IMG/VR virus record: IMGVR_UViG_2695420859_000010
Direction: 5' to 3' (one strand)
DNA from: a virus
Lineage: Duplodnaviria > Heunggongvirae > Uroviricota > Caudoviricetes
Length of the DNA: 18,376 nt
The position numbers were made by a program, and so were the translations under genes. The notes below the pieces were generated by a model. The model saw only the letters and a list, made by a program, of their open reading frames with translations. It had not been told where the DNA came from and searched no databases. Positions 2,126 through 5,230 of this stretch are shown piece after piece (the first letter of the stretch is position 1; each line of letters opens with the position of its first letter).

Positions 2126-2311
2126 TTACTTAATTATGTAATTCATACCCGAACTCTCTGTTGACAGCCTTCTTCTGCAGGCTTCAATAACCCACGCTGA
2201 AAAGTTACTGGACCCTTTATGCTCAAGGGCGATGTTGATCTGTTCAATCATGTGATTGGGGAAACGGATATTGCGGGTTGTGGTTCTGCGGGTCCGGTTT
2301 TTCGATGACAT
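2126..2311 (-). CDS. DUF3950-like small DNA-binding protein, probable ribbon-helix-helix fold (YlcI-like)
   Basis: Minus-strand ORF starting at the internal ATG (MSSKNRTRRTTTRNIRFPNHMIEQINIALEHKGSSNFSAWVIEACRRRL...). Basic N-terminus, short beta-strand and two helices typical of Arc/CopG-like proteins. I recall similar small proteins next to the terminase genes in DLP12-type prophages. Only minus-strand gene in the window. Confidence 0.65.
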   Translation of the reverse strand: MSSKNRTRRTTTRNIRFPNHMIEQINIALEHKGSSNFSAWVIEACRRRLSTESSGMNYIIK

Positions 2312-2352
2312 ATTTATTTCCTTTACTGATTGCCATATGACGGGGATTTTAC

Positions 2353-2718
2353 ATGGCTGAGCTTCGTACACTCCAGAGCAGAATCAAAACTCTGAACACC
2401 CGACGGGTGAATATTCTGAAGGGGGAACAGCGTCGTGTCAGTGGCAGTGCACGTGTTTCCCTCAAGCGTCATATCTGGCTCAGGGATGCCGGGCAGTGCT
2501 GTCTCTGTGGTCGTGTGGTTGACCTCTGTGACAGTGAACTCGATCACCGCATTGCACTTCAGTTCGGTGGTGGTAATGAGGAGACGAATCTCTGGACGCT
2601 CTGTACCGAATGCCATCGCCAGAAGTCAGTCAGTGAAACGGCGAGTGGTATGCCGGACCCGACGCTGCCGGAGGTGTCCGGAGGTCATGGCAGGGCAGAC
2701 GATATCATCGGACTGTGA
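2353..2718 (+). CDS. HNH endonuclease (terminase-associated)
   Basis: 121-aa ORF with Cys pairs and the HNH core (CCLCGRVVDLCDSELDHRIALQFGGGNEETNLWTLCTECHRQK). Directly upstream of the terminase genes, as in HK97-like cos phages. Confidence 0.85.
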   Translation: MAELRTLQSRIKTLNTRRVNILKGEQRRVSGSARVSLKRHIWLRDAGQCCLCGRVVDLCDSELDHRIALQFGGGNEETNLWTLCTECHRQKSVSETASGMPDPTLPEVSGGHGRADDIIGL

Positions 2719-2808
2719 TCCGCCCCGGGGGGGGGATCATCCGGCGAAAAAAACGATCGCCCCGGACACCGCCCCCCGTCTCATGCAGAGAAAAAATTCC
2801 TGTTTCAG

Positions 2809-2936
2809 GCCAGTTAACATGTTAACTGGCTGCCCGGGCATTTTTTCGGTTTTTATCTTTATTATTCAGTTTGTTGTGCGAAAAAAATGTTAACTGGCTT
2901 TTTCAGCAAATGTTAACCAGGCAGCAGTTAACATTT
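2809..2936. promoter_or_regulatory. Array of ATGTTAAC half-sites: a perfect 22-bp palindrome plus three further copies; candidate terminase small-subunit binding sites (cosB-like) or operator
   Basis: GCCAGTTAACATGTTAACTGGC at 2809-2830 is its own reverse complement. Further copies at 2887-2898 (ATGTTAACTGGC), 2910-2919 and 2925-2934, the last two forming AAATGTTAAC-N9-GTTAACATTT. AT-rich tract between them. Function is inferred from position between HNH and TerS. Confidence 0.4.
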
Positions 2937-3008
2937 GCGGCATGAGACGCCGGGAAAAATGGGCTGAACCATACCCGGCTGAGTGCGTTATGGACCCGGG
3001 AGGAGGCT

Positions 3009-3572
3009 GTGCTGACAACGCAAAAACGAAAATTTGCGCTGGCGCTCATGTCCGGGAAAAACAAAACAGCGTCAGCCATTGCCGCCGGTTATTCGGCGAA
3101 GACCGCCAGGGTTAAAGGCTCGCAGCTGGCAAAAGATCCGGAGGTGCTCGCGTTTATAGCCCGTAAACAGTGCGAAACGGTGGAGATGGATGAGGTTCCT
3201 GTTTACCGGCAGAAAAAATCAGAGCAGGAGGATAAACCCCGTCGCCGTGAGGTGGCTGCAATACCACAGCCGGACGAAAACAATCCGGAGATGCCTCCGC
3301 CCGCGGTGATATCTCATGGTATTGAATATATGGAGGATGGTCTTCCCGATCCGGTGAAAGCTATGGGGCAGATCCTGGTGGAAAACCTGATAATTGACCC
3401 GAAACTGGCACTGGATGCGGCCTGGCGACTGGCGCAGTTCACACACCATAAAAAAGGCGATGCCGGTAAAAAATCGGCAAAAGGTGATGCCGCGAAAAAA
3501 GCGGCTAACCGTTTTGCGGTGCCACCACCTCCCCGACTGGTGGTGAATAACCAGAATGAGGAAAGCGGATGA
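3009..3572 (+). CDS. Terminase small subunit (P27-family-like)
   Basis: 187-aa ORF, GTG start after GGGAGGAGG. N-terminal HTH-like region (KRKFALALMSGKNKTASAIAAGYSAKTARVKGSQLAKDPEV) typical of phage small terminases. Stop overlaps the TerL start (ATGA). Confidence 0.8.
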   Translation: MLTTQKRKFALALMSGKNKTASAIAAGYSAKTARVKGSQLAKDPEVLAFIARKQCETVEMDEVPVYRQKKSEQEDKPRRREVAAIPQPDENNPEMPPPAVISHGIEYMEDGLPDPVKAMGQILVENLIIDPKLALDAAWRLAQFTHHKKGDAGKKSAKGDAAKKAANRFAVPPPPRLVVNNQNEESG

Positions 3573-5230
3573 TACCTGTATGGAGCACGGCATGTCCGGA
3601 CTGGGCAGAGCGCCTGAAAAAGGGACTGTCGATTATTCCGGCTCCGATTTATCCGGACCAGGCTGCACATGCCCTGGCGATTTTTAAACAACTGCGAATT
3701 GTGGATGCACCGGGTAGCCCGACATTCGGGGAGTCCTGTGCACCGTGGGTGTTTGACCTGGTGGCGGCCCTGTTTGGCTCCTACGATGCGCAGACCGGTG
3801 TTCGCCATATCAAGGAAGTGTTTATCCTTATCCCCAAGAAAAACAGTAAGTCCACGCTGGCCGCGGGGATCATGATGACGGCGCTGTTACTGAACTGGCG
3901 GCAGGCGGCGGGCTACACCATTCTGGCCCCGACCGTGGAGGTGGCGGCTAACGCCTTCAACCCTGCCCGGGATATGGTACGACGGGACGATGATCTGGAT
4001 GACCTCTGTCAGGTGCAGACACATATCCGGACCATCACCCATCGGGTGACGGACACCACCCTGAAGGTGGTGGCAGCCGATCCGAATACGGTGTCCGGTA
4101 TCAAGTCCGTGGGGACACTGATTGATGAACTGTGGCTGTTTGGCAAGCAGTACAAAGCGGAAGACATGCTACGTGAAGCCATCGGCGGGCTTGCCTCCCG
4201 TCCGGAAGGATTTGTGGTGTACACAACCACCCAGTCGAATGAACCGCCTGCCGGGGTGTTCAGACAGAAACTGCAGTATGCCCGGGATGTCCGTGACGGC
4301 AAAATTCATGATCCGCACTTTCTGCCGGTGATTTTTGAGCATCCTCCTGAAATGGTGGAAAGCGGGGCTCACCTGCTGATGGAAAACCTCGCCATGGTCA
4401 ATCCGAATCTCGGTTATTCGGTGGATGAGGCTTTTCTGTACCGGGAGTACCGTAAAGCCCGGGAGGCTGGTGAGGAAGCATTTCGTGGCTTCATGTCAAA
4501 ACACGCCAATGTGGAAATCGGTCTTGCCCTGCGTTCTGACCGCTGGGCGGGCGCGGATTTCTGGGAGCAGCAGGGCAGGCGCGTCAGCCTGGACGATATC
4601 CTGCAGCGCGCTGATGTGGTGACGGTGGGGATTGACGGCGGGGGCCTGGATGATCTGCTGGGAATGTACGTGACTGGCCGTGACAGGGAAACCCGCGAAT
4701 GGCTGGGCTGGGGCCATGCCTGGGTGCATGAAACCGCGGTGGTCAGACGGAAGAGTGAGGCATCCCGGTTTCAGGATTTTGTGGCCTGTGGAGACATGAC
4801 GATTGTCCGTCGGGTCGGGGATGACACGGCGGAAGTGGCGGAGTATGTGCGTCGTATTCATGAGGCTGAGTTACTGGATCATATCGGTATTGACCCGTCA
4901 GGTGTGGGGCAGATTCTGGATTCACTGGCGGAAGCCGGGATCCCCGATGAGAGTGTGGTGGGGATAAGCCAGGGCTGGAAGCTGGGCGGGGCCATCAAAA
5001 CCACCGAGCGCAAACTGGCTGAGGGAGTGCTGGTGCATGGTGGTCAGCCACTGATGGCCTGGTGCGTTGGCAATGCCCGGGTGGAGCCTAAAGGTAACGC
5101 CATTCTTATCACCAAACAGGCCAGTGGACGGGGAAAAATTGACCCGCTGATGGCGCTGTTCAATGCGGTCTCCCTGATGTCCCTTAACCCGGAACCGAAA
5201 AAGAAAGAATATGTGGTTTTTTTCATATAA
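3569..5230 (+). CDS. Terminase large subunit
   Basis: 553-aa ORF with a Walker-A-like ATPase segment (ILIPKKNSKSTLAAG) and a C-terminal nuclease-like region; translationally coupled to TerS. Confidence 0.9.
   Translation: MIPVWSTACPDWAERLKKGLSIIPAPIYPDQAAHALAIFKQLRIVDAPGSPTFGESCAPWVFDLVAALFGSYDAQTGVRHIKEVFILIPKKNSKSTLAAGIMMTALLLNWRQAAGYTILAPTVEVAANAFNPARDMVRRDDDLDDLCQVQTHIRTITHRVTDTTLKVVAADPNTVSGIKSVGTLIDELWLFGKQYKAEDMLREAIGGLASRPEGFVVYTTTQSNEPPAGVFRQKLQYARDVRDGKIHDPHFLPVIFEHPPEMVESGAHLLMENLAMVNPNLGYSVDEAFLYREYRKAREAGEEAFRGFMSKHANVEIGLALRSDRWAGADFWEQQGRRVSLDDILQRADVVTVGIDGGGLDDLLGMYVTGRDRETREWLGWGHAWVHETAVVRRKSEASRFQDFVACGDMTIVRRVGDDTAEVAEYVRRIHEAELLDHIGIDPSGVGQILDSLAEAGIPDESVVGISQGWKLGGAIKTTERKLAEGVLVHGGQPLMAWCVGNARVEPKGNAILITKQASGRGKIDPLMALFNAVSLMSLNPEPKKKEYVVFFI

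Follow-up and report, generated by a model that had tools for sequence, protein, structure and literature searches.

A predicted 3′-cos site with an array of GTTAAC-type boxes upstream of the small-terminase gene of a Shiga-toxin-type prophage

We found that the non-coding DNA between the HNH endonuclease gene and the small-terminase gene (terS) of a Shiga-toxin-type prophage carries five copies of an 8-mer, ATGTTAAC, next to the point that corresponds to the virion ends of a sibling phage. The region was analysed within a stretch of 18,376 nucleotides (the window), and its alignment to phages with mapped ends indicated that it is almost certainly a cos region with cosN at 2770–2779. It is quite likely that the gap as a whole acts as an HK97-style 3′-cos site in which the boxes form a cosB-like array read by the small terminase (TerS), and the five boxes are probably TerS sites.

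The window phage is a long-tailed lambdoid E. coli prophage of the Shiga-toxin type, and its source is, as judged from sequence, a BP-4795/1717/2851-type Stx siphophage whose late region is represented here. The interval from HNH to TerS (2353–3572) showed 93–99% identity with Stx1a- and Stx2c-converting phages and with BP-4795, 1717, 2851 and YYZ-2008. The Pfam assignments gave the order HNH, TerS, TerL, protease-capsid fusion and portal, with the following features:

14–547, lysozyme gene (Pfam)
1029–1502, Rz gene (Pfam)
2126–2371, minus strand, DUF3950 gene (Pfam)
2353–2718, plus strand, HNH endonuclease gene (Pfam HNH PF01844, E=2e-6, above the curated cutoff)
2999–3006, Shine-Dalgarno sequence GGAGGAGG ahead of the terS GTG
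3009–3572, plus strand, terS, Terminase_2 small terminase (Pfam PF03592, E=1.2e-8; GTG start)
3569–5230, plus strand, terL, HK97-type large terminase (Pfam TerL_ATPase and TerL_nuclease, above the curated cutoff)
5294–7231, protease-capsid fusion gene (Pfam)
7443–8807, portal gene (Pfam Phage_portal)

The first-pass annotation had placed a gap of 290 bp between HNH and TerS, and this was borne out by the HNH stop at 2718 and the terS GTG at 3009. In the sibling phage Lys8385Vzw, the annotated terS begins at a CTG that precedes this GTG by 45 nt (MT225100 185–793, equal to window 2964–3572). The GTG at 3009 is the more plausible start because it stands behind GGAGGAGG and fits the conserved M-L-T N-terminus of the relatives. 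The RefSeq label “portal protein” is attached to the counterparts of both the 7443–8807 and the 8804–9865 open reading frames; the counterpart of the latter is longer in BP-4795, and its “portal” label may be wrong.

The first lead to the cut site came from a blastn search with the gap, which returned a single distant match, Salmonella phage FSL SP-016, aligned only at 2723–2826. The flanking genes of this phage are too diverged to align as DNA, and the match therefore pointed to a constrained non-coding core. We then searched IMG/VR with the 14-mer GGACACCGCCCCCC (window 2764–2777), filtered the matches by blastn and found the same core in several unrelated-looking lineages. The records of the Acinetobacter phages fEg-Aba01, fLi-Aba02 and fLi-Aba03 begin and end within this core, and their last 10 nt are annotated “3′ cohesive end”. 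For fEg-Aba01, 10-nt 3′ cohesive ends 5′-CGCCCCCCAT-3′ were determined with PhageTerm, and their cohesiveness was backed by a restriction gel after heating and annealing (PMC7354433). In our alignment CGCCCCCCAT occupies the same columns as the window cosN.

More evidence came from the Stx1 phage Lys8385Vzw, a 3′-cos siphophage that clusters with phage 1717, with the cohesive end CGCCCCCCCT mapped by PhageTerm alone (PMC7946995). Its record (MT225100) finishes with ...GGACACCGCCCCCCCT and starts with CTCACGCAGAGAAAAAATTCC..., and these ends match window 2779 and 2780 base for base. The virion ends of this sibling thus fall inside the interval that had been proposed as a candidate cos region; the same intergenic DNA breaks at 2779|2780, 30 bp upstream of the palindrome described below, and on this basis cosN was assigned to 2770–2779. 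For the window prophage, both the position of cosN and the presence of fixed virion ends with 10-nt 3′ overhangs between HNH and terS rest on homology to these sibling and relative phages with mapped ends. The final 10 nt of the HK97 record are CGCCGCCAAA. The record of Burkholderia phage vB_PR2a is uncut at the predicted nick, so this phage contributes homology and no ends. Phage phi330 was set aside as a locator of cos, since its record mentions cohesive ends in a note but is cut at terL. No relative of the L063-type core was present in the phage collection searched, and a literature search with the overhang strings gave only unrelated primers among the matches listed.

The alignment of the core, which covered the window, the Salmonella-, L010-, Acinetobacter- and L063-type loci, the two phages with mapped ends, HK97 and vB_PR2a, revealed a shared architecture: a run of 5–10 G, an interval of 32–35 nt, a 10-nt overhang, CTCAYNC, an A-tract and TTYCC. 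In the window these elements are:

2727–2735, G-run of 9 G, conserved left flank on the last-packaged side
2755–2769, cosN left arm GATCGCCCCGGACAC, conserved in the E. coli, Salmonella and L010-type lineages
2770–2779, plus strand, cosN, predicted 10-nt 3′ cohesive end 5′-CGCCCCCCGT-3′, by homology to mapped relatives
2780–2808, right arm, the first packaged bases CTCATGCAGAGAAAAAATTCCTGTTTCAG, with A-tract, conserved

The overhang begins with CGC throughout the alignment, and with CGCC everywhere except vB_PR2a. CTCAYGC and the A-tract follow the CGCC... overhang in the core common to the window and fEg-Aba01 and are recognisable in HK97. GGACAC of the left arm is also kept in the Acinetobacter- and L063-type lineages, and the right arm (CTCAYNC...A-tract...TTYCC) is kept in all lineages, as far as the Burkholderia phages. 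Among 65 IMG/VR loci from five lineages, a run of 6–10 G ends 33–35 nt upstream of the overhang, compared with 32 nt in HK97 and 33 nt in vB_PR2a. The G-run is polymorphic in length (6 to 10 G) with a fixed 3′ edge, and it was seen in every lineage examined, HK97 included (L128 880–890). By its conservation it is a flanking part of HK97-type cos sites and not the cut site, and it is possible that it serves as a cosQ-like signal or positions TerL or HNH. The G-run segment that the first-pass annotation had picked out is thus real as 9 G in a conserved flank; the 26-nt string quoted for it starts at 2721, not 2720, and it is not cosN. No statement on the G-run turned up in the HK97 papers searched by keyword.

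Two loci with insertion sequences were also seen. In PPompW prophages (L132, LC567822.1 PPompW_132418, 1146–2604), the IS110-family element ISEc20 adjoins the G-run, with the junction at about window 2731. Prophages of this kind are without the lysis genes and the HNH gene and have a substituted overhang (CGCGCCCCCT); they keep cosB, terS and terL but probably cannot cut their own cos. A partial match in TB354 (L131, NZ_AP038814.1, E. coli) was rejected as a variant cos and recognised as an IS1-associated truncation, in which IS1A replaces everything upstream of window position ~2954, leaving terS and terL without cos or boxes in a decayed prophage.

We then considered the repeats. The statement that five copies of an 8-mer here exceed chance proved correct: ATGTTAAC occurs at 2813(−), 2819(+), 2887(+), 2910(+) and 2927(−) in the whole 18.4-kb window, all within 2813–2934, and shuffled sequences had a mean of 0.29 copies, with none of 200 reaching five. 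The core GTTAAC is found 8 times in the window (2.0 expected), and 5 of the 8 lie in the array. The palindrome, the spaced pair and the AT-rich tract described earlier were likewise confirmed, and the array consists of the following parts (with +1 at 2780):

2809–2830, box pair 1/2, a perfect 22-bp palindrome GCCAGTTAACATGTTAACTGGC with arms of 11+11 nt; GTTAAC at +34 and +42; candidate TerS-binding site
2838–2886, AT-rich spacer of 49 bp with T and A tracts between the first pair and the other three boxes; 27% GC against 56% in the window
2885–2898, plus strand, box 3 AAATGTTAACTGGC; GTTAAC at +110; 8-mer invariant in 23 variants
2906–2938, box pair 4/5, GCAAATGTTAAC-N9-GTTAACATTTGC; GTTAAC at +133 and +148; both 8-mers invariant in 23 variants

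All five boxes lie at +34 to +155, downstream of cosN and ahead of the terS start at +230, and the array occupies the position of a cosB. The boxes are spaced by 8, 68, 23 and 15 bp, and simple helical phasing is absent. The AT-rich spacer may act as a bendable linker. No match to the IHF consensus WATCAANNNNTTR was found at up to one mismatch in 2719–3008. The second cluster (2898–2938) resembles a diverged duplicate of the first (2800–2830): the first reads CTGTTTCAG-N3-box pair and the second CTTTTTCAG-N3-box pair, with 9 bp inserted between its boxes. Salmonella-type relatives have the first pair only, and their cosN-terS gap is 39 bp.

Conservation of the motifs was examined among related prophages and, like the virion ends, came out in favour of the first-pass reading. 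The five 8-mers were invariant in 23 distinct variants, a set that includes one only 87% identical; 0 of 38 columns in the 8-mers were variable, whereas the other 191 columns from +1 to terS included 31 variable ones (Fisher p=0.0035). The region was found in 1244 of 5426 complete E. coli genomes (~23%) at 2948 places, 6 of them on plasmids, with up to 7 copies of the cos region per genome. One exact match to the cos region was found in the E. coli O26 strain RM10386. Co-resident prophages with one common cos could be cross-packaged. The complete 50-kb genome of Lys8385Vzw has 6 copies of ATGTTAAC; five lie at +34 to +155, in an array identical to that of the window, and one stray copy lies inside a gene.

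The findings were extended to more distant TerS lineages. Relatives of TerS were fetched from IMG/VR by alignment and combined with the earlier loci, giving 57 entries in 17 clusters, with less than 80% identity between clusters over the first 55 residues. The box zone ran from the right arm to codon 5 of terS; in loci where the arm was not recognised, it began 130 nt upstream of terS. In 1574 nt of this zone we found 48 GTTAA/TTAAC matches, compared with 2.9 expected from the remaining sequence of these loci; omission of the cluster to which the window belongs left 38 against 2.8. At least two matches were present in 15 of the 17 clusters. The variants included GTTAACC(C) x3, TGTTAAGT x2, GTTAAAG x3 and GTTACAC x2, arranged by lineage as follows:

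Salmonella-type, GTAAAC-AT-GTTAAC across the terS ATG, a pair homologous to boxes 1/2 and at the same distance from cosN
L201-type, GTTAAC-GT-GTTAAC across the GTG start, with the 8-bp spacing of the window palindrome
L185 and L193, three direct GTTAACC(C) repeats about 11–13 bp apart
L207, TGTTAAGT x2
Acinetobacter, AAAGTTAAAG x3
L010-type, AAAAGTTACAC x2
Burkholderia-type, TGTTAA-N5-TTAACA across the start codon

In L199 (IMGVR_UViG_2846902752_000001, 1331–1383), CATGTTAACTG and GTTAAT boxes also occur to the left of the G-run, so that candidate TerS boxes flank the cut on both sides, recalling pacL/pacR. The N-terminal Leu-Thr of terS (within codons 2–4; window 3012–3017) is written TTA-ACN, giving a TTAAC box, in 12 of 17 clusters, including L002, L010, L105, L063 and L134/L135. 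This suggests that TerS has a box across its own start codon, possibly for autoregulation. In the five lineages whose terS start lacks TTAAC (E. coli, L185, L193, L199 and L207) the leucine is CTG or CTT, and four of these five have at least two boxes upstream. In the Burkholderia phage, at 63% GC, Leu-3 of terS is TTA, which creates TTAAC; this codon is used for 5 of 336 leucines (1.5%), and TTAAC occurs once in 12 kb. These figures argue for selection on the DNA motif, with a preference for AT-rich 5′ codons as the alternative explanation. Part of the cross-lineage TTAAC signal, that in the conserved terS Met-(Ala)-Leu-Thr codons, could reflect coding ancestry or such a preference.

The proteins were compared with known terminases. 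TerS matched PF03592 with 36.1 bits (cutoff 26.1) over residues 2–59, an N-terminal helix-turn-helix domain, and this match to Terminase_2 covers the N-terminal 58 profile positions only. Residues 10–53 aligned to the DNA-binding domain of SF6 G1P (PDB 4zc3 and 2cmp), with weak E values of 0.2–0.4. The first 55 residues are the best conserved part, including a putative recognition helix S-x-K-T/S-A-x-x-K-G-x-Q-L, and the N-terminus M(A)LTxxK(R)KFA...AGYSxKTA..KG.QL is kept across lineages. TerL was 23% identical to HK97 gp2 over 490 aa (BLASTP, E=6e-12). The HNH gene, directly upstream of cos and labelled HNH or DNase in phages BP-4795, 1717 and 2851, is the positional counterpart of HK97 gp74, an accessory nuclease for cos cleavage; by sequence comparison the similarity of the two proteins was non-significant, and they belong to the same Pfam family.

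From these features we infer that TerS binds the boxes and wraps the DNA and that the HNH protein takes part in cutting. The G-run, the left GATCGCCCCGGACAC and the right CTCATGCAGAGAAAAAATTCC would form the part of the site common to distant relatives, and the five AAATGTTAAC boxes, in two clusters with the 27%-GC spacer, would form the cosB-like recognition array. An oligomeric Terminase_2 TerS with peripheral helix-turn-helix domains would bind several boxes and bend or wrap the DNA, placing TerL and HNH on the adjacent cosN; by analogy, a ring of TerS subunits whose peripheral domains sit on several short boxes would be the simplest reading. The terminase would make the nicks, probably aided by the HNH nuclease encoded just upstream. 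The top strand would be nicked between 2779 and 2780 and the bottom strand between 2769 and 2770, and these staggered nicks would leave 10-nt 3′ cohesive ends 5′-CGCCCCCCGT-3′, with packaging proceeding rightward from 2780 across terS and the head genes.

Several observations, the lack of simple helical phasing and the partly coding TTAAC signal among them, stand as counterpoints to TerS reading the boxes. Conservation reaches deeper in the right arm (+1 to +29) than in the boxes, and the arm lies at a position similar to that of the HK97 TerS site at +15 to +29, so that it could be the true target of TerS or a second target of equal rank. In addition, the recognition-helix region of TerS is very similar across lineages, whereas the box variants differ (GTTAAC, GTTACAC, GTTAAAG, GTAAAT), and no code relating helix to box could be derived from the lineage alignment, where the variation is too small and confounded. 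We therefore weighed the reading in which TerS recognises the right arm at +9 to +30, GAGAAAAAATTCCTGTTTCAGG, and the boxes bind something else, such as an accessory factor of the phage or a nucleoid protein of the host, or only tune terS expression. The A-tract arm is conserved out to the Burkholderia phages, the HK97 TerS site has an A-tract at the same offset (PMC11331095), and many lineages have boxes that lie across the Shine-Dalgarno sequence and start codon of terS, an arrangement that would suit translational autoregulation. However, HK97 TerS (gp1) had no Pfam match at E≤0.01, against Terminase_2 for the window TerS, and detectable similarity between the two was absent; repeated boxes suit a ring with multiple helix-turn-helix domains; box number and position vary yet stay between cosN and terS; and the IHF consensus was missing from 2719–3008. 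We regard recognition of the right arm instead of the boxes as unlikely, and continue to favour the boxes as a TerS-read array.

The palindromic arrangement of boxes 1/2 and 4/5 would also suit operators of a dimeric regulator acting on head-gene or terS transcription, as the first-pass annotation had offered as an alternative, and a weak sigma-70-like match lies on the minus strand at 2916–2887. This reading is disfavoured, and we consider it improbable: the 50-kb sibling genome has no second motif cluster, other lineages have direct repeats with an 11–13 bp period instead of palindromes, and promoter-like matches numbered 2 in 900 bp against 0.5 expected, neither of them good. It also counts against operators that in lambdoid phages the late genes are transcribed by read-through from the Q-antiterminated late promoter. 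An RNA-level element, in which the inverted repeats form hairpins in the late transcript for attenuation or for control of terS translation, appears still less credible. The folding energy of 2780–3020 was somewhat below that of shuffles (z=−2.2), the predicted stems are the two inverted repeats, and one weak terminator-like site lies at 2834–2849; yet inverted repeats in any DNA would produce such a z value, terminators are no more frequent than by chance, the only Rfam result was a chance HgcF match (E=0.9), and where relatives have direct repeats no equivalent hairpin can form. That the array is a neutral local duplication without its own function, as the likeness of CTGTTTCAG plus box pair to CTTTTTCAG plus box pair and the lack of the extra ~190 bp in Salmonella-type relatives might suggest, is hardly tenable: around the unchanged 8-mers the intergenic DNA is variable, 1244 genomes have retained the array, and other lineages carry independent box arrays.

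No new kind of system is revealed here: the kind of element is already known and the 10-nt end is published for the sibling. The box array is undescribed within the literature searched, where no account of it or of the conserved flanking architecture was found and searches with the palindrome and box strings returned nothing relevant. Tentatively, GTTAAC-type boxes might be the recognition element of a Terminase_2 TerS clade joined to an HK97-like TerL/HNH cutting module. If this is true, the site would be modular, with a slowly evolving cut module (G-run, ~34 nt, CGCC overhang, CTCAYGC, A-tract) reaching from HK97 to Acinetobacter and Burkholderia phages and a fast-evolving TerS-box module beside it. 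The ancestral form would be two boxes across the start codon of terS, where TerS could regulate its own expression, and in E. coli Stx-type phages the array would have been displaced upstream and expanded to five boxes. It would then set cross-packaging among co-resident prophages (up to seven per genome), defective and Stx phages included.

Roughly 23% of complete E. coli genomes contain the cos region, and a cell frequently has several prophages with it, among them Stx1- and Stx2c-converting phages. The exact cut site allows correct linearisation and annotation of these prophages, and the site could be used to predict which co-resident or defective prophages a helper's terminase can package and to design a cos plasmid or packaging-specific assay for the family. 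The system would also be an example of a 3′-cos HK97-type cutting module working with an SF6/SPP1-type small terminase, and the comparative definition of the cos core could guide mechanistic work on HK97-type phages, for example on the unexplained G-run.

Compared with known systems, the lambda cosB consists of R3-I1-R2-R1, sites for gpNu1 and IHF, with short repeats of mixed orientation between cosN and the small-terminase gene. The window likewise has conserved repeats, candidate TerS sites, between cosN and terS, and as in lambda the first site is set apart by an AT-rich segment, in the window possibly a bendable one. The overhangs of lambda are 5′ and 12 nt long, its TerS is of the gpNu1 family, and it has an integral IHF site and no HNH. 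The window ends, which by homology are 10-nt 3′ overhangs, are unlike a lambda-type cosN, and since the IHF consensus is absent the analogy stops short of the IHF feature. Like the window, SPP1 and SF6 have a Terminase_2 TerS whose N-terminus carries a helix-turn-helix DNA-binding domain, and G1P binds repeated boxes that flank the cut site in intrinsically bent DNA (SPP1 pacL/pacR). These phages package by headful (pac) with imprecise cuts, whereas the siblings and relatives of the window have defined cohesive ends.

The cos of HK97 is like that of the window in having the HNH gene immediately upstream and terS and terL immediately downstream, a homologous TerL, a 10-nt 3′ overhang beginning CGCC and a G-run 32–35 nt upstream. 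It differs in that gp1 is not a Terminase_2 protein while the window TerS is, and in that its TerS site is single and short and terS follows after a gap of 49 bp, compared with five boxes over 120 bp and a gap of 229 bp. The TerS site of HK97 was shown to be just downstream of the cut, at +15 to +29, with the A-tract included (PMC11331095). This site, CTAACCCGATTTTTT, is preceded by TTTAAC and resembles the GTTAACCC boxes of L185 and L193, a likeness that serves as no more than a lead, since homology between gp1 and the window TerS was not detectable. There are also Lys8385Vzw and the Acinetobacter phages fEg-Aba01, fLi-Aba02 and fLi-Aba03, for which the published accounts report the 10-nt end only (PMC7946995, PMC7354433) and which have the same core and the same cut position as the window.
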